Of a stretch of DNA of 64,000 nt, positions 14,347 to 62,495 are shown one piece after another; within the stretch, counting starts at the first letter, position 1, and the number at the start of each line of letters is the position of its first letter. The notes beneath the pieces are model-generated. The model saw only the letters and a list, made by a program, of their open reading frames with translations. It ran no database searches and had not been told where the DNA came from. Source of the DNA: Escherichia phage EC.W2-6. The stretch lies in sequence record PP445229.1. One strand, given 5' to 3'. A program made the position numbers and the translations under genes.

Positions 14347-16191
14347 GTGAGCAACCCGGACGCTCTTCCATTTTTGACAGAGATGACTGTCGCTGATATA
14401 ATCTCTAAGCAAGCAAAGCACGGAGTTAGTTTCAACCGAAGAAATGCTCGGTGGTATGTTCACCTCCTTAAAGAGATTATTGTTAATATTGACAGAGAGT
14501 TGATTCCTCTCTTACCTAAGATGAGATTAGATGGCTCTACTTATATGAAGCCGTTTAAGAAGTCTGGAGCTTTACAGAAGTGGCCTCAAGCTTATTGTGA
14601 TAGGGTTGGGCTGAAAAGAGAAGACATTGGTGGAGCATTCACCTGTGTCGAATATGTAGACTTTGATCCATCGAAAGATGCACGAGTTAAAGAAGCTCTT
14701 ATGGATGAGGGCTTTCTTCCTCCAGAGTTTAACGTATCTAAGAAGCCTTGGAATACTTTCGAAATTAAGAAAGATATGAGAAAGTATGGAACATACCAAG
14801 CATGGTATACTGCTTGGATGCGAGGTAATGCTAAACAGAAGCAGACAGCCGAGATGGTTGACGCTGATATTAGAAAGTTCTTAGAGAAGCATTTTCGGTT
14901 TAAAACTAAGAACTACATGAAGGCTTACGTATTTGGTTTGGGATTAAACCCTAATCGCCGTAATCCTGTAACGTTTGATGAGATTAAGAAAGCACTAGCC
15001 ACATCAAACAAGTGGCCTACAGCTCCTACAAACCTCGAGGAGACTCTTGAAGAAGGGTTAGGGGGTGAGCTAGGGAGTGTCGGAAGTTTGCTTAAGAGAC
15101 GCGTTGTGGCGGCTCACAGGCTAGGTCTTATCAGTGGACTCATAGCAAAGGAACGCGAAGATGGTAAACTTTCGGCAGAAGCTAACAGCTGCGCTACGCC
15201 GACTTTTCGATTCAAACATCGTATCGTGGTTAATATTCCCTCCCGTGGTCTGTTTGGTCACGAGTGTCGCAGTTTGTTTGAGTCTGACTATAACTCAGAC
15301 AGTGATCACTCTCGTCCTTTCGTTATTACTAACGTTGTTCCTGATGGTTGTTATATACGAAAAGGTACTAACGTAATTTACGAGAAAGGTAAGCCGGGGA
15401 AGAAAGACAAACCTGTAGGCGCTTACAAATATTACATACCCACTGGTAAAGAAGTATTCTTAGGGTATGATGGTTCTGGACTGGAACTTCGTATGCTCGC
15501 TCACTACCTCATTAAAGAGTGTAGGGATATGCTTGCTGAGGCAATTGAAGAGAACAACCCAGCTAAGAAAGCTCTGGCAGAACGTGGTTTAGCTTCTGCT
15601 ATTATGTATCGTGATATTCTCCTTGAAGGTGATATCCACTCCCACAACCAGAAACTTGCTGGTCTTCCTACTCGTGACAACGCTAAGACATTTATCTATG
15701 CATTCAACTACGGTGCTGGCGATGCTAAGCTTGGTTCAATTGTAGGTGGTGGGGCTGACGAAGGTTCAGTGATGCGAGCACGTTTCTTAGCAGAGAACCC
15801 ATGTATTGCAATCCTCATTGATCGTATGACAGAGAAAGCTGCTCAAGGATACTTGATTGGAGTTGATGGTCGTAAGATTACAATGAGACGGGATGCCACT
15901 GGTAAGGTTATGGTTCATAAAGCCCTTAACACACTCCTGCAATGTGCTGGTGCTGTTGTTATGAAATATGCTATGATGTTCCTTAACAAGTGGATTGAGA
16001 AAGATAAGGTTCGTTGTGCTAAGGTAATTGATATGCACGATGAAGGTCAATTCTCAGTAAACCGTAATGATGTACAGAAACTCAAAGAGCACACTGAGCT
16101 TTGTGTTAAGAAAGCTGGCGAGTATCTGAACATGGAATGTCCTCTGGCATCTGATTGTCAGATTGGACTTAACTGGATGCATACACACTAA
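14347..16191 (+). CDS. DNA polymerase I family (T7 gp5-like), polymerase domain; C-terminal part of split polymerase
   Basis: GYDGSGLELRMLAHY (motif A), LPTRDNAKTFIYAFNYGAGDAKLG (motif B), VIDMHDEGQF (motif C); AAAGGAG Shine-Dalgarno before GTG start. Confidence 0.85.
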   Translation: MSNPDALPFLTEMTVADIISKQAKHGVSFNRRNARWYVHLLKEIIVNIDRELIPLLPKMRLDGSTYMKPFKKSGALQKWPQAYCDRVGLKREDIGGAFTCVEYVDFDPSKDARVKEALMDEGFLPPEFNVSKKPWNTFEIKKDMRKYGTYQAWYTAWMRGNAKQKQTAEMVDADIRKFLEKHFRFKTKNYMKAYVFGLGLNPNRRNPVTFDEIKKALATSNKWPTAPTNLEETLEEGLGGELGSVGSLLKRRVVAAHRLGLISGLIAKEREDGKLSAEANSCATPTFRFKHRIVVNIPSRGLFGHECRSLFESDYNSDSDHSRPFVITNVVPDGCYIRKGTNVIYEKGKPGKKDKPVGAYKYYIPTGKEVFLGYDGSGLELRMLAHYLIKECRDMLAEAIEENNPAKKALAERGLASAIMYRDILLEGDIHSHNQKLAGLPTRDNAKTFIYAFNYGAGDAKLGSIVGGGADEGSVMRARFLAENPCIAILIDRMTEKAAQGYLIGVDGRKITMRRDATGKVMVHKALNTLLQCAGAVVMKYAMMFLNKWIEKDKVRCAKVIDMHDEGQFSVNRNDVQKLKEHTELCVKKAGEYLNMECPLASDCQIGLNWMHTH

Positions 16192-17323: not shown

Positions 17324-17339
17324 GTCTAAAGGATTTGAC

Positions 17340-17732
17340 ATGAATATTGGTTTAGATTATGATGACACTTACACAGCAGATAGACGTCTGTGGAGAGATG
17401 TGATAGGATTGATGAAAGGGTATGGACATGATGTAAGATTCGTGACTTTCCGTTTCTCAGAGCCTAATGGTTATGATAACGTGGATATCCTCTATGATGC
17501 AGAGACCCTGCAAATCCCTGTCATCTTTTGTAATGGTGTGCAGAAGGATGAGGTGTGTCGACAGTTAGGTTTCTTCGTCGATATCTGGATTGATGACTTC
17601 CCTGTTGGAATCCCCAAAAAGGACCACCTAGATGGTATGCTGAAGGGCGTAAGACTTAATGACCTTAGGGCAGCACCTCCTGTAGAAATAGCCGCTCCTG
17701 TGTACTCTGAAGAGCCTTTGGTGATTCGATGA
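17340..17732 (+). CDS. HAD-superfamily-like hydrolase (putative nucleotidase)
   Basis: N-terminal GLDYDDTYT fits the DxDxT motif I; IWIDDFP is motif IV-like. Confidence 0.45.
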   Translation: MNIGLDYDDTYTADRRLWRDVIGLMKGYGHDVRFVTFRFSEPNGYDNVDILYDAETLQIPVIFCNGVQKDEVCRQLGFFVDIWIDDFPVGIPKKDHLDGMLKGVRLNDLRAAPPVEIAAPVYSEEPLVIR

Positions 17733-55722: not shown

Positions 55723-55836
55723 ATTAGTGTTATAAAGTAACAATAGCTAGTAAGCTGATTCTCTGAGTATGGAAGGTTTAGTAAATTAAATTCCTTTAGT
55801 TTTCAGTGAGTTATAAGAAAGTTAGAAAATAAATGG

Positions 55837-55866
55837 TTGACAGGTTTTTCCTTTATTATATAGTTG
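55837..55866 (+). promoter_or_regulatory. sigma70-like promoter (TTGACA-N16-TATAGT)
   Basis: Near-consensus -35 and -10 hexamers about 45 nt upstream of the 55909 gene; spacer closely resembles the promoter at 58091. Confidence 0.55.
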
Positions 55867-55908: not shown

Positions 55909-56781
55909 ATGTCTAAAGTAGCAATTAACCACTTGAACAAAGCAAACGAAAGCCTTTCCTCTTTAGGCTTAACCGTTGGTAGTCCTGATGCGTGGATGGA
56001 AAACGAAAGCGCACGTAAAGGATTCAAAAACTCTGTAATGCTGGCTTGCTTGATCATTAATTCTACTGCGAACGCCTTACAGTGTGAAGATGAAAGCACG
56101 TTCAAAGAGAATGGCTTTACCGATATACAGGACGCTATCAACTGTTACATTCAGGCAAATTTGGATAGCTGGAATCAGAAAGATTGGCCTGAGTCATGCC
56201 GTGATGTGAAAGCTGAATTATCCCGCTTGTCTGTCATGGTTGAAGCATGGAACAAGAAAAACAAGAAACAACCAATCAAGCCTACTGTTGCAAGTAAGAT
56301 TATGAAGTCTGTTAATCTGGCAAGTTATGCACTGGTTGCAGCTATCGGTGTTAGTGCACTGGTCACGTCTCTTTCTGATAAGGCTATCGCTAGTCCTGCT
56401 CCTGCAACTGATGCGGCTAGTGTCTTCTCTAGTTCCATCAATAAGGGTTGGATGATTTGCAACGGTGCGGATAGTGACGGCAATAATATCGTGCTAAAGA
56501 TGAAATTTAGCAACGTAACAAATGATGGAGTTCTCTTTCAATCTAAAACGTTAGATAATCAGCCTAACAGTGATCTAGTTCTCAAGCGTACTGATAACGA
56601 TGCGGATATGGTGACATTTGGCACTGTACAACGTTATGAAGACGTTAAAGCTGTAACCAACCTAGTGAGCTATGGCCCGATCAATGAGTCGATGATCGCC
56701 ACCACGGTTTACAATAACGCTGATAATGCTGTTTATACTGTTCACGTTAATTTAGCCAACTGCATTAAGGCTAGTAAGTAA
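55909..56781 (+). CDS. membrane protein with central TM helix (290 aa)
   Basis: Hydrophobic LASYALVAAIGVSALVTSL between a helical N-domain and beta-rich C-domain; sigma70-like promoter about 45 nt upstream. Confidence 0.5.
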   Translation: MSKVAINHLNKANESLSSLGLTVGSPDAWMENESARKGFKNSVMLACLIINSTANALQCEDESTFKENGFTDIQDAINCYIQANLDSWNQKDWPESCRDVKAELSRLSVMVEAWNKKNKKQPIKPTVASKIMKSVNLASYALVAAIGVSALVTSLSDKAIASPAPATDAASVFSSSINKGWMICNGADSDGNNIVLKMKFSNVTNDGVLFQSKTLDNQPNSDLVLKRTDNDADMVTFGTVQRYEDVKAVTNLVSYGPINESMIATTVYNNADNAVYTVHVNLANCIKASK

Positions 56782-57408: not shown

Positions 57409-57786
57409 GTGATTATTATCATGGGTATTATCAAATTTGTAGTAAAAGTATTCGTGGGCTTCTTCCTTGTCGTTCTCCTGCTGGGTGTGCTCCTATCGGC
57501 TATGGGTAGCGTTAAGGCTGCAACATTCTCCCCTGCTACGGTGGAAGGTTTACAGTGCACCTATTTGATAGAAAATTATGATACCGGTAAAAAGTCACCT
57601 AAAGTTATTATTTTGCATGTAAATGATTTCGATCATGTGCAATCAGATAGTAAAACTATTCTACTGGTAAATGAAACTACTGGTAAACAAATCACGGTCG
57701 ATCACTTGATGCGCTCATCGTTAACGCTCTTTGATGAGTCCATGAATGAAATGGCATCCGGTAATGGTCAATGTGTAAATCCATAG
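57409..57786 (+). CDS. membrane-anchored/secreted protein (125 aa)
   Basis: N-terminal hydrophobic segment (IIKFVVKVFVGFFLVVLLLGVLLSAMG); two Cys in extracytoplasmic part; terminator downstream. Confidence 0.45.
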   Translation: MIIIMGIIKFVVKVFVGFFLVVLLLGVLLSAMGSVKAATFSPATVEGLQCTYLIENYDTGKKSPKVIILHVNDFDHVQSDSKTILLVNETTGKQITVDHLMRSSLTLFDESMNEMASGNGQCVNP

Positions 57787-57862
57787 GCTTAATCTTTCTC
57801 CTGTATTGTGCCGTAGTCATGCCTATGGTCATAATTTATCTGATGCTTTAAATCCTTCCTGT

Positions 57863-57890
57863 AAGCCTCCTAGTGAGGCTTTTCTCTTTT
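57863..57890 (+). terminator. rho-independent terminator
   Basis: AAGCCTC-CTAGT-GAGGCTT hairpin followed by TTCTCTTTT. Confidence 0.6.
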
Positions 57891-58090
57891 ATGAGGTGAT
57901 TGTATGCCTTACTCCCTTTTAGCTCGTTGTGGTGCGTTACAGGCCGCTTATTATTGCTTTACAAGCCGTTTTCTATGATGTATCACGCGCCCCCGCTCTT
58001 TTACCTCCTGATTTCTTCCGGTGTCCTACCGACAATAAAATAAATTCCTTTATAAAACAGTGAGATGAAAAATAATTTGAAAAAAGGGTA

Positions 58091-58118
58091 TTGACATGAT
58101 TTTCCTTTATAGTAATAT
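58091..58118 (+). promoter_or_regulatory. sigma70-like early promoter (TTGACA-N16-TAATAT)
   Basis: Consensus -35, 16-nt spacer, good -10; preceded by an A-rich UP-like tract. Confidence 0.55.
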
Positions 58119-58296
58119 GAATCCCGTAGTAAGCAGTAAGTAACAACAAGTAGTAAAAACTCCTCGATAGGTGATTAGCATCACGGTAAAAGGCTTCAAC
58201 GGGGAGCGGTAGGAATACCGACAGTAAGACGCACAATGAAGGTGCTACGCTCTTTAAAAATCAGGCTAGAAAGTGAAAATATTCTTAAAAAGAGTA

Positions 58297-58325
58297 TTGA
58301 CACCGAAAACAGCCTGATTCATAAT
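58297..58325 (+). promoter_or_regulatory. sigma70-like early promoter (TTGACA-N17-CATAAT)
   Basis: Consensus -35 with 17-nt spacer; near-duplicate of the promoter at 58600. Confidence 0.6.
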
Positions 58326-58444
58326 AAGCACTCAGTCAGCGATGACTTAAAAAATCCCGCTCTTTAAAAACTTATCATCTTGCCTTTTCGCATAGATTCA
58401 CGCGAGATAAGGGAAAAGAATAAAAGAAGATGATAAAAAAGAGA

Positions 58445-58479
58445 TTGACAAGCTAACACGATGTGTTAAGCTGTAAATG
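58445..58479 (+). promoter_or_regulatory. possible weak promoter (TTGACA with poor -10)
   Basis: Consensus -35 only; no good -10 hexamer at 16-18 nt spacing. Confidence 0.25.
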
Positions 58480-58599
58480 CTACACCGCTCTTTAACAATA
58501 TGAATCATAAGTTAAGCATCACCGCTTAATCTTCAATCAAATAAAGCTGATTGATATATCCTCCCAATAGCGGGAACGACGAAAAAGATTAAAAAGTGG

Positions 58600-58628
58600 T
58601 TGACAGCGAAAACAACATGATTCATAAT
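58600..58628 (+). promoter_or_regulatory. sigma70-like early promoter (TTGACA-N17-CATAAT)
   Basis: Same architecture and nearly identical spacer to the promoter at 58297. Confidence 0.6.
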
Positions 58629-59549
58629 GAGCACTCACTAAGCAAATCACCGCTTCAGTGAAAAGCGTAACAACGGCTAACAGTTGCATAGTGTGAGAAA
58701 GCACACTGATAGATTTACCGCTCTTTAATAATTTAAACATTCTCCTATATCGGTTGAATATGTTAGATGATAATAACCATCGGATAACATACCAGATAAA
58801 ACGGTGTAAGATTCTCTAAACTATCAGAGAAAACAATCTTATAATCCCTTGCTGGAAACGTCACCACTGATAAACGGATTCATTGAGTGTACGCAAAGAT
58901 TTAAGCTAATCGCCCACGGTTAAGGGTAGCGGCGGTCATCGCTAACAAGGCGCTACAGTGAAAGAAGTTAATCAGGGTAGGCAAGCCCGAAGAATTAACG
59001 CTCAATTGAGAGCGGCGGGGAGTGGTTAAAAAGTGGCAAATTGCTATTTAACAATAAGGTTTAGTGTGAACGTTTACGATGTGAATGATTTGAGGCCACT
59101 ATTGATGGCGTACATAGTCAGTTTATGTAGTAAACTTGCCGAAAGATATAAAACGTCAGAACATTAGACGGTCAATGACTCTTTCACAATAGCATCCCGT
59201 TGTGGGCGATGGCTAGTGATTGAGAGTTGATACAAAAGGATAGGCGAGAGCGAAAGCAAAGTAGACGATATTGCCGACGGTTACAATAAACGTAACTAAT
59301 TAGAGTCGGACGCACTGCCTTATTGTGATGATTGATCATCGCTATCAGGTCGGCTTCGTTTATAGCGACTAATTAAAGATACCAGATGAAACATCACGGA
59401 TAAGGGGGCGGCAAGGTTAACTCCTGATAAGACCGCCCCGCTTACCTATAACTACTTAACAACGAGTGGTTATAGTTAAGTTAATAGTGACTTAAACAAG
59501 CTCATAGAGAGCGGGGCAATAGCGCCCTTACAAGTGAAAGGTGAATATC

Positions 59550-60449
59550 ATGGCTAAAATCTTTACTCTGGTTAACGAATCCGGTTTTAATGCTCTGGCT
59601 AACAACATTCGCAGTAATAACGCGGCGATCAAACAAGATGTTTCTAACTTCCTGTTAGGGCACTTACAGCACTTCCGCAGTAATGGTAAGAAGCTGGACG
59701 TATTGCAGTCGGCGGTTGACTTTCTGTTAACTGAACGTTTCCGTGATATGGATGTTATTGCCACTGCAATTACTTTCTTAACTCCTATCAAGTTTAACAC
59801 CGATGCGGCAAATGGTCGTAAAAAGTGGATTAATCTGGAAGGTGAGGCGAAAGCTAAAGAAGACGCGAAAGAAGCGCAAATTAAAACCAAAATGGAACAA
59901 AACCGCGCTCGCTGGTCAAATGCTTTCGAGAATTTTGCTTTAGGCCGTGAAATTGAAGTTGATAATCCTAACTTTTACAAGGGTTGCAATGACAACGTGG
60001 CGGCACACCTGCAAATCCCGGCGAAAAACAAGGAAGATTTTAATCAGGATATTTACGCTTTAGTTGAACGCTTGAATGCAATCCGTATTGAAGCCAAATT
60101 ATTGGCTGATGAGCGCAATGGTGCTACCAGCGATAACACTATCGCCTTAAGTGAAGAAGTGGGCAAAGTTAAGAAGTCATTCGACTCGCTCATCAAGAAA
60201 GTCACGGCCTCAACGGTAGCGATCTCTGATAACTACCTGATGAACGCATCAAGCAAGGAATTAGAATCACTCGATTCATACGCTGATGAAATGGAAAAGA
60301 CTGTTGCAGCTATGCAGGAGAAGTTAGAAAGTCTGCGCGGTCGTATCTCTTCAACGGTTGCTACCCGTACCGAACAAGCTGCGAAAGCAGAAGAGGAAGA
60401 AGTATTGCGTAAAGCGGCTGAAATTATGGCGGCACGTCAAGCGGCATAA
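59550..60449 (+). CDS. hypothetical alpha-helical protein (299 aa)
   Basis: First ORF after the ~0.9 kb untranslated leader; GAAAGG Shine-Dalgarno; terminator downstream. Confidence 0.5.
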   Translation: MAKIFTLVNESGFNALANNIRSNNAAIKQDVSNFLLGHLQHFRSNGKKLDVLQSAVDFLLTERFRDMDVIATAITFLTPIKFNTDAANGRKKWINLEGEAKAKEDAKEAQIKTKMEQNRARWSNAFENFALGREIEVDNPNFYKGCNDNVAAHLQIPAKNKEDFNQDIYALVERLNAIRIEAKLLADERNGATSDNTIALSEEVGKVKKSFDSLIKKVTASTVAISDNYLMNASSKELESLDSYADEMEKTVAAMQEKLESLRGRISSTVATRTEQAAKAEEEEVLRKAAEIMAARQAA

Positions 60450-60473
60450 GTAAGACAATTTAAATAAACATAA

Positions 60474-60506
60474 GGTGCTATCTTAACGGGTAGCGCCTTT
60501 TCTTTT
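60474..60506 (+). terminator. rho-independent terminator
   Basis: GGTGCTA-(10 nt)-TAGCGCC hairpin followed by TTTTCTTTT. Confidence 0.5.
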
Positions 60507-61275: not shown

Positions 61276-61719
61276 GTGGCTAAATCTAAAATCAGCATGA
61301 AGGGCGGGCGTTGTTTTTCTATATCTGAACTGGAGAAAGAGAATCCAAAGGCAACCAATCACGTCAGCAAGCGTAGTTTAAAACGTCGTGCTGCAAAGGC
61401 TGAAGCTGAATCCCATATCCCTTCTAGTGTGGCAAAACGTGTAGGCCATCGTGTCCATCGTGCTGATGCGTTATTGTTAGCCGATCATAAACGTTCTTTG
61501 TTAAAGAGCGGGGGAGCAAAAACAGAAGAGGAGAAGAAGTTAGAAATCTTCTGTAATGGTCGCACCCGTGGTAAACAGAAGTTTAAGGGTAGCACGAAAG
61601 ACCCGCAGGCTTTTCCTAAGACAAGCCAGTGCGCACCTGATGTTTTCTACGCAGACAGTAAACACAAGTGGGGCGTTGAAAAATACATTGATCCCATCAA
61701 AGAGGCGAGGGTAAAATGA
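61276..61719 (+). CDS. highly basic protein (147 aa), possibly nucleic-acid binding
   Basis: Lys/Arg-rich throughout; GTG start with AAAGGAATAAGG upstream. Confidence 0.4.
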   Translation: MAKSKISMKGGRCFSISELEKENPKATNHVSKRSLKRRAAKAEAESHIPSSVAKRVGHRVHRADALLLADHKRSLLKSGGAKTEEEKKLEIFCNGRTRGKQKFKGSTKDPQAFPKTSQCAPDVFYADSKHKWGVEKYIDPIKEARVK

Positions 61720-61889: not shown

Positions 61890-62040
61890 TACTATGACGC
61901 TCTTTCTGTCGCGTCGTGCCCTCTCCCCATTTGAAGCTTCCGCATAGCCGCCTTTGAGCGGCTTTTTGCGTTGCTGTAAGTGCATTTGCGAGTGTATTTA
62001 TAGCAACGGTCATGTGTTGCTTTCAGGTTTGCCCCGGCTA

Positions 62041-62067
62041 CGGCTGGGGCTTTTTTATGCCCGTAAA
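62041..62067 (+). terminator. rho-independent terminator
   Basis: GCCCCGGC-TACG-GCTGGGGC hairpin followed by TTTTTTA. Confidence 0.65.
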
Positions 62068-62105: not shown

Positions 62106-62495
62106 ATGTTGACATTGACTATTTATTATGAGGCAGGGAATCAGCCAACCGCATGTAAGGCTTTAGTTGCGGATACCGTGATAAATAGAATGGCCCAACG
62201 AAAACTGACCGCTGAACAGGTGATAAGACAAAAGAACCAGTTTGAGTGGATTCCGGTACTATTAAAACAGGAGAAACCTTATAAACGTTATGTAAAGCTG
62301 ATTCGTGATAAAAATCCGATGACTAAGCAAGCCATTGGAGAAAGCGAGCGGCTGGCTAAACGTGCCCTTAAGAAGAATTATGTTCCGCTGTACAGTGGGA
62401 CTTACTTTCAGAGTAAGAGCGAAGGGGTGCCAAAATGGTATGCCAATCCTATGTATTGTGGTGATTTAGTATTTGATAATAGCTCTAGGGAATAA
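62106..62495 (+). CDS. cell-wall hydrolase, SleB-like (Hydrolase_2 family)
   Basis: TIYYEAGNQP ... KALVADTVINRM and GTYFQSKSEGVPKWYANPMYCGDLVF parallel the conserved blocks of SleB-type hydrolases as I recall them. Confidence 0.55.
   Translation: MLTLTIYYEAGNQPTACKALVADTVINRMAQRKLTAEQVIRQKNQFEWIPVLLKQEKPYKRYVKLIRDKNPMTKQAIGESERLAKRALKKNYVPLYSGTYFQSKSEGVPKWYANPMYCGDLVFDNSSRE

Follow-up and report, generated by a model that had tools for sequence, protein, structure and literature searches.

The DNA examined here is a 64,000-nucleotide (nt) window of the genome of Escherichia phage EC.W2-6 (PP445229.1), and the element in question is a spacer of 1.75 kb at positions 57790-59540 that is free of open reading frames (ORFs). 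Sequence matches of this spacer identify the phage as a phiEco32-like coliphage of the Kuravirus type (Gordonclarkvirinae): with Escherichia phage EC.W8-1 it shares 100% identity, and with phiEco32, SU10, and dozens of further Kuravirus coliphages 92-97%. Homologues of phiEco32 gene 125 (57421-57786) and gene 124 flank it on either side (Table 1). The same spacer is unannotated in most related records and carries short 'hypothetical proteins' in a few. It holds an array of predicted sigma70 promoters, several copies of a short box that matches the boxA of host ribosomal RNA (rRNA) operons, and a long structured RNA that leads into gene 124. A preliminary description of this DNA had pointed out the promoters and the box, and had overlooked that the promoters feed an untranslated structured RNA of about 0.9-1.4 kb.

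Promoters were searched on both strands of the window, with a cut-off of a perfect TTGACA and at least 10 of 12 consensus positions overall, and 200 shuffled sequences served as the control. Seven sites were found on the + strand and none on the - strand, against a shuffle mean of 1.5 per strand; three of the sites fall inside 510 nt, which occurred in 0 of the 200 shuffles (shuffle maximum, two). The consensus scan recovered the strong promoters that had been proposed at 58091 (P1), 58297 (P2), and 58600 (P4) and the related one at 55837; together with the weaker one at 58445 (P3), they far exceed the number expected by chance. The nearly identical spacers that had been noted also hold up, as P2 and P4 belong to a common 44-nt repeat with 86% identity. 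The promoter at 55837 and P1 are likewise paralogues; they have the spacer TTTTCCTTTAT in common, as well as some 50 nt of upstream sequence. This duplication spans 55787-55864 and 58042-58118, its upstream part reads AAATTCCTTTA..CAGTGAG, and it may contain a shared upstream regulatory site. P3 is a decayed copy of a real module, since the homologous site in PAS59, SU7, EK010, MLP3, and TH34 is TTGACA-16-TAGAAT, i.e., 11 of 12 consensus positions. The promoter array is real and was described previously: Table S2 of the SU10 paper contains predictions equivalent to four of the five promoters (55837, 58297, 58445, and 58600), and the paper also refers to three promoters in the phiEco32 spacer.

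The box, with the core C(C)GCTCTTTAA, is present as the exact sequence CGCTCTTTAA in four copies on the + strand (58248, 58358, 58486, and 58719), and GCTCTTTAA alone has six matches in the window, compared with 0.85 expected. Five copies between the promoters had been counted originally; four of these are exact, and the fifth, at 57994, is a variant (CGCTCTTTTA) located upstream of P1 and kept in NJ01, ECBP2, O18-011, and IMEP8. The gamma-proteobacterial BoxA consensus is GYTCTTTAANA (PMC5725501), and all four exact boxes agree with it at every position (58249, 58359, 58487, and 58720). This consensus has seven matches in the window against 0.48 expected, of which four are located within 480 nt on one strand. 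In the sequence of E. coli MG1655, the boxA of the rrnB leader is GCTCTTTAACAATTTA and that of the 16S-23S spacer is GCTCTTTAAAAATCTGG; the four exact phage boxes match the leader and spacer boxA through position 13. For the rrn BoxA, binding by NusB:NusE at about 8 nM has been reported, and for the nutL BoxA, binding by NusB alone at 2200 nM (PMC2800207). Judged by their sequence, the phage boxes appear to be of the high-affinity rrn type and not of the weak lambda type. The box is a host-type boxA by its sequence and a candidate NusB/NusE recognition sequence that would be read on the nascent RNA, and among the roles suggested for it earlier, that of a factor-binding site fits best. As far as could be checked, a boxA had not been described in this phage group before, and its occurrence in multiple copies is unusual; in the literature searched, within whose reach the original phiEco32 papers (Savalia 2008, Pavlova 2012) did not fall, the box is unmentioned for phiEco32-like phages, and nothing relevant was found on a phiEco32-type non-coding RNA or on Kuravirus RNA sequencing.

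In relatives, the box is conserved in sequence, strand, and position. A total of 58 copies in 14 phages keep GCTCTTTAAnAAT, all 58 on the transcribed strand, and conservation extends to positions outside the search pattern, namely, A+10 and A+11 (58/58 each), T+12 (53/58), and C-1 (51/58), with variable flanks beyond. Every phage compared has a box after each spacer promoter and before the next one, with 2-4 promoters and 3-6 boxes per phage (4-6 in all except EP335, which has three), and the predicted start is separated from the box by 18-149 nt in the promoter-box pairs measured. After the last box there is no further promoter. The distances from box to box (110, 128, and 233 bp) are irregular and vary among relatives, and those from a box to the next promoter are 49, 87, and 114 bp. 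Promoters that run straight into ORFs served as a negative control and are without a box: this applies to the promoter at 55837 and to the other sigma70-like + strand sites at 14374-14402 (12/12), 17335-17363 (11/12), and 5267-5295 (10/12), which lie inside or overlap the start of a + strand ORF.

Some further box-like sequences occur in the window. The sequence TTGCTATTTAACAATAAGG at 59043-59061 is a boxA look-alike with a C4->A change; all 15 phages have it nearly unchanged, with a single substitution in TH34, and part of it pairs within leader helices 17 and 18. At the 3' end of the gene-125 homologue, CGCTCTTTGA (57725-57734) is kept in phiEco32 and NJ01 and fails the BoxA consensus; it may be a relic or due to chance. 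An exact CGCTCTTTAA at 61501-61510 on the - strand, antisense inside the + strand ORF 61276-61719, is probably a chance occurrence.

The boxes are usually preceded by a small hairpin (Table 1) and are single-stranded or just partly paired in local folds. The hairpin GUCA-GCGA-UGAC before boxA2 is kept across relatives whose promoters differ. The stem of the hairpin before boxA4 (58689-58708) covaries at three pairs, one of them as UA/CG/GC, and five of its six loop bases are invariant, the sixth being different in one phage. The 3' flank of boxA3, UAUGAAUCAU (58498-58507), is a perfect 10-bp complement of AUGAUUCAUA in the spacer/-10 region of P4 (58618-58627), with one compensatory change in IMEP8 and mismatches in NJ01 and ECBP2; a helix between the two in longer transcripts is possible, and the evidence is ambiguous. 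A pairing of boxA2 with 59498-59515 was considered as well and rejected, because the latter segment folds into a local hairpin in the consensus structure.

Downstream of the last promoter, the spacer encodes a conserved structured leader RNA, which extends from the predicted start of P4 (~58635) to the ATG of gene 124 (59550) and is 908-950 nt long across 15 phages. Its stop-free stretches reach at most 62 amino acids on either strand in EC.W2-6, and at most 98 in any relative. The leader is 77% identical to that of PAS59 and 94% identical to that of SU7, compared with 55% at the third codon positions of gp124 in each case. RNAalifold was applied to the 15-phage alignment and returned 246 pairs, of which 80 show compensatory double changes; two unsupported pairings were taken out, giving a model of 234 pairs in 40 helices in which 98.8% of the cells pair. 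Two-sided changes were found at 80 pairs (263 cells), versus 8-12 pairs (9-21 cells) when the 3' partners were slid by 1-3 columns, and on four of five measures the observed values were reached by 0 of 500 shuffles. The alignment has 370 G-U cells and 10 A-C cells, which shows that the structured RNA is the + strand, i.e., the strand transcribed by the promoters. The minimum free energy (MFE) z-score of the leader is -6.1.

The leader is organized as two large domains under long-range helices, a third domain at 59327-59395, and five terminal hairpins. Domain 2 is closed by pairing of 59051-59068 with 59311-59326, and the 5' strand of the helix that closes domain 1 starts at the last base of boxA4. 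Among the unpaired stretches that are invariant throughout the leader alignment, AGATTTACCGCTCTTTAA (58711-58728), made up of boxA4 and its 5' flank, is the longest. In LAMP, the leader has insertions of 21 and 11 nt (A1 columns 527-547 and 598-608; ~59145 and ~59194) with diverged sequence between them, and PAS59 and TH34 are without the first small leader hairpin (columns 18-27); these mark tolerant parts of the RNA. A candidate helix between the leader's 5' end and the Shine-Dalgarno region of gene 124 (columns 16-20 with 960-964) was dropped, as it is absent in PAS59 and TH34. The leader is considered the most interesting element in the region, the one that the promoters and the boxes serve.

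Searches with the region did not link it to a known RNA family. Rfam 15 gave no family at the gathering thresholds, nor up to an E-value of 10; the matches were chance hits only (E-value of at least 1), with bit scores far below the gathering thresholds, and neither rRNA nor another family was found in the region. ARAGORN detected no transfer RNA or transfer-messenger RNA, and outside boxA the region has no similarity to any E. coli genome. The distribution of the leader is narrow, comprising about 100 coliphage records, five IMG/VR contigs (from the same phages), and seven near-identical metagenome contigs. Scans of IMG/VR by protein and by RNA motif retrieved the same known phages only, the metagenome scan gave 34 motif matches, of which the seven near-identical ones are true, and the single match in GTDB was due to chance. 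In Salmonella phage 7-11 (NC_015938), which is distantly related, the last ~1050 nt contain, on the reverse strand and at the early end of the genome, an ORF-free leader of about 1 kb upstream of gene 151. It is not similar to the Kuravirus leader, its MFE z-score is -4.6 versus 40 shuffles, and gene 151 has no homology to gp124. Long structured leaders of early transcripts may be more widespread among these prolate-headed phages.

Table 1. Predicted features of the spacer and its surroundings in the EC.W2-6 window
Feature	Positions	Strand	Description
Predicted promoter before the gene-128 homologue	55837..55864	+	TTGACA-16-TATAGT; no boxA; ATG at 55909, ~40 nt downstream; in SU10 Table S2
Intrinsic-terminator-like hairpin with T-run	57863..57891	+	Closes the gene 128-125 operon; terminator annotation in SU10
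Degenerate box CGCTCTTTTA	57994..58003	+	Fails the BoxA consensus at position 8; upstream of P1
Predicted promoter P1	58091..58118	+	TTGACA-16-TAATAT; A-tract directly upstream of -35
Hairpin GCAC-AAUGAAG-GUGC	58231..58245	+	3 nt 5' of boxA1; local fold
boxA1, GCTCTTTAAAAAT (GCTCTTTAAAAATCA at 58249)	58249..58261	+	14 nt identical to the E. coli rrnB 16S-23S spacer boxA GCTCTTTAAAAATC
Predicted promoter P2	58297..58325	+	TTGACA-17-CATAAT; paralogue of P4
Hairpin AGUCA-GCGA-UGACU	58334..58347	+	GNRA loop; 11 nt 5' of boxA2; local fold
boxA2, GCTCTTTAAAAAC	58359..58371	+	Consensus match
Predicted promoter P3	58445..58473	+	Perfect -35, poor -10 (TAAGCT)
boxA3, GCTCTTTAACAAT	58487..58499	+	13 nt identical to the rrnB leader boxA
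Predicted promoter P4	58600..58628	+	TTGACA-17-CATAAT; last in the array; found in 15/15 phages compared
Untranslated conserved structured leader, ~915 nt	58635..59549	+	234 pairs, 40 helices
boxB-like hairpin UAGUGUG-AGAAAG-CACACUG (helix 2)	58689..58708	+	11 nt 5' of boxA4
boxA4, GCTCTTTAATAAT	58720..58732	+	Inside the longest invariant unpaired run of the leader alignment
Domain 1 of the leader	58732..59030	+	Closing helix 3 (58732-58745 with 59017-59030); 3 covarying pairs, 97% paired
phiEco32 gp124 homologue, 299 amino acids	59550..60449	+	First gene after the leader

With respect to the neighbouring genes, no informative Pfam, PHROG, or PDB match was obtained for gp124 and its neighbours, and homologues of gp124 are confined to the same ~97 coliphage records.

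Rho terminates untranslated transcripts. Long non-coding rRNA and arrays of clustered regularly interspaced short palindromic repeats (CRISPR) evade Rho through boxA-nucleated Nus complexes (PMC7665894; PMC8632103). As the boxes of the spacer match the rrn boxA and its promoters feed a long structured untranslated RNA, the phage seems to imitate the layout of such an rRNA operon, and the region would constitute the main early transcription unit of a phiEco32-like phage, built in that way. It is proposed, with a probability of roughly 0.7, that boxA mediates rrn-type antitermination on this unit in the service of the long untranslated leader, and the structured leader RNA is the likely reason why the boxes exist. 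In this scheme, three to four tandem strong sigma70 promoters would fire rightward, and the nascent transcript from each of them would soon gain a boxA, GCUCUUUAAnAAU. By analogy with E. coli rrn leaders, NusB-NusE(S10) would bind the boxA RNA, and NusA, NusG, SuhB, and S4 would join, resulting in a processive, Rho-resistant polymerase that is tethered to the 5' end of the transcript. In this way, the polymerase could get across 0.9-1.4 kb of RNA that is not translated and arrive at gene 124 and the early genes that follow. The same Nus complex would probably also help the ~915-nt leader to fold, in particular its long-range helices, as proposed for 16S rRNA. Nus factor binding, Rho protection, and RNA chaperoning at the phage boxes are thus inferred from the rrn system.

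Several observations weigh against this proposal. RNAalifold pairs part of boxA4 with 58661-58667, a pairing without covariation support. The leader is G-rich and structured: over 58800-59550, its GC skew ranges from +0.08 to +0.30, and no part of it is clearly rich in C and poor in G. It therefore offers no obvious Rho loading site. The leader of phage 7-11 has no boxA on its transcribed strand. Lastly, antitermination alone leaves the multiplicity of the boxes unexplained, since a single boxA placed behind the last promoter would suffice for every transcript; candidate reasons for it are duplication of promoter plus box, early loading on A-rich upstream RNA, and titration of Nus factors.

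Titration may also be regarded as the purpose of the boxes in its own right. RNAs with one to four high-affinity boxA sites, made in quantity from the four strong promoters, would then act as a Nus-factor sponge that withdraws NusB, S10, and SuhB from host rrn and aids shut-off, which is compatible with rrn-type antitermination and differs from it in purpose only. The surplus of boxes over the single one needed for antitermination (four here, 3-6 in relatives) and their high-affinity rrn type are in line with this idea, and Friedman and colleagues reportedly observed in 1990 that plasmid-borne boxA causes a transcription-dependent competition for a host factor. However, boxes follow the promoters without exception, and the last box, which heads the structured RNA, is invariant; both facts speak for a role in cis. 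In addition, gp79 is already present for the shut-off of sigma70 (PMC12276001). A sponge is accordingly judged an unlikely main purpose.

The hairpins next to the boxes raise the question of lambda-like nut sites, at which a phage N-like protein on the hairpins would act together with NusB/E and allow read-through of intrinsic terminators in the early operon. GNRA-type hairpins do adjoin the boxes, e.g., GUCA-GCGA-UGAC and GUGUGA-GAAA-GCACAC, the latter with a near-invariant loop (one base in one phage) and a covarying stem. Terminator-like hairpins with T-runs are also present on the + strand past gene 124 (60472-60499, 61946-61963, 62031-62050, and 62382-62401), and early transcription must cross these four or be attenuated there. 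Nevertheless, a position of the hairpin 5' of boxA is the rrn order and the reverse of that in lambda (PMC8632103), and the boxes carry the rrn-type GCTCTTTAA, not the lambda-type CGCTCTTA. An N-like protein with an arginine-rich motif was not found in the 16 nearby early ORFs, which is weak negative evidence, and none of the nine of these ORFs that were scanned has a family annotation that suggests RNA binding. A nut-like function thus seems improbable, and rrn-type antitermination is preferred.

RNA processing sites, or 3' ends of short promoter-proximal RNAs, had also been suggested for the box; processing or decay could involve, e.g., ribonuclease E (RNase E). As a U/A-rich motif that is single-stranded or partly paired in local folds, it does resemble RNase E sites. 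Against this stand the 58 copies that are identical to the NusB/E consensus at 13 positions, and RNase E sites are not known to be kept at such sequence precision. Moreover, 57990-59540 has no terminator-like hairpin with a T-run on the + strand, and the last box, with no promoter after it, heads the 0.9-kb structured RNA, which makes both of these suggestions very improbable. A function of the boxes at the DNA level, as replication-origin iterons or as regulator sites for the adjoining promoters, would suit direct repeats that all have the same orientation and lie near a genome end, in a region that is A+T-rich, full of promoters, and free of ORFs. Yet it is hardly tenable given the irregular spacing that differs in relatives, the varying distance to the promoters, the last box without a following promoter, and the coincidence that would have to be assumed for the exact match to a host signal acting at the RNA level.

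A broader proposal, which is put forward tentatively and is held to be somewhat less likely than not to be correct, is that the leader represents a new class of RNA of about 0.9 kb and about 40 helices. It would be made in bulk at the start of infection from a mimic of an rRNA operon, i.e., tandem strong promoters, a boxB-like hairpin, boxA, and a long-range helix, and the antitermination/chaperone complex of the host would be borrowed to transcribe and fold it. Such an RNA would have a function of its own beyond that of a gene-124 5' untranslated region (UTR), for example, as a protein sponge, a scaffold, an anti-defence decoy, or a replication primer.

If the above holds true, it accounts for a 2-kb 'empty' spacer that is unannotated or filled with spurious ORFs in about 100 Kuravirus genomes. 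The reach of Nus-dependent antitermination, which covers rRNA, CRISPR arrays, and suhB, would then include a virulent phage's early leader; to our knowledge, few virulent phages outside the lambdoid phages have been described with a host-type boxA, and here it is present in multiple copies. In addition, a new large structured RNA, strongly supported by covariation and coming with a defined set of very strong promoters, would be added to those known. Large non-coding RNAs whose function is unknown are rarely found, and time and again they have led to new biology. Phages of this group are used in therapy collections, and the spacer is treated as dispensable for engineering.

Among known systems, the E. 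coli rrn operons share with the phage region the tandem strong sigma70 promoters, 13-14 identical nt of boxA, a hairpin on its 5' side, a long-range helix that starts directly behind it, and a long untranslated structured RNA. The rrn order of boxB, boxA, and boxC is mirrored by the phage hairpin, boxA, and the 5' strand of the long-range helix (PMC8632103). For boxC, which occupies this position in rrn, it has been proposed that the leader, being tethered to the polymerase, is carried to its distant partner (PMC8632103); the rrn boxC sequence UGUGUGGG is absent from the phage leader, and the covariation-supported helix 58732-58745/59017-59030 is found at the analogous position. The phage region differs from rrn in that it has no rRNA-like sequence outside boxA, in that 480 nt hold four boxes where an rrn leader holds one, and in that it yields a 0.9-kb RNA, behind which protein genes lie on the same transcript.

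T7-like phages, to which the region had been compared in the preliminary description, provide an apt analogy of design and not of homology; the phage is phiEco32-like, and T7 belongs to an unrelated phage family. T7 likewise has tandem strong promoters for the host polymerase near the genome end, directed inward and followed by a consensus boxA. In the T7 record, A1, A2, and A3 are annotated at 498, 626, and 750 and gene 0.3 starts at 925; the boxA, CGCTCTTTAACAAT at 812-825, is unannotated, matches the consensus perfectly, and is found 63 nt downstream of the A3 annotation and 100 nt ahead of gene 0.3. It is reportedly noted in the T7 literature. T7 has one boxA and then a leader of ~110 nt, whereas four boxes and 0.9 kb of structured RNA are found here. 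In PAS59, positions 1-275 carry the terminal-repeat annotation; the first promoter lies at 609 and the array at 2930-3257, and all of these promoters are directed inward. With promoters thus placed near the terminal repeat and pointing inward as in T7, it is conceivable, as pure speculation, that early transcription draws the genome into the cell.

The boxA of CRISPR arrays (Stringer et al. 2020; PMC7665894) is also of the host type and heads a long untranslated transcript as a protection against Rho, and the boxA that lies within suhB's 5' UTR (Baniulyte et al. 2017) has the same consensus GYTCTTTAANA. Both differ from the phage boxes in being chromosomal and single-copy, and the suhB boxA represses expression instead of promoting read-through. 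The lambda nutL and nutR sites are similar in that a phage-borne boxA is located beside a small hairpin downstream of early promoters; their hairpin/boxA order is reversed, and their weak boxA is N-dependent (PMC2800207). As for the RNA itself, the leader differs from GOLLD, ROOL, OLE, and HEARO by having no Rfam 15 match and a very narrow distribution, and it resembles these RNAs in its comparable size (~0.9 kb), its many covarying helices, and its location in a phage.

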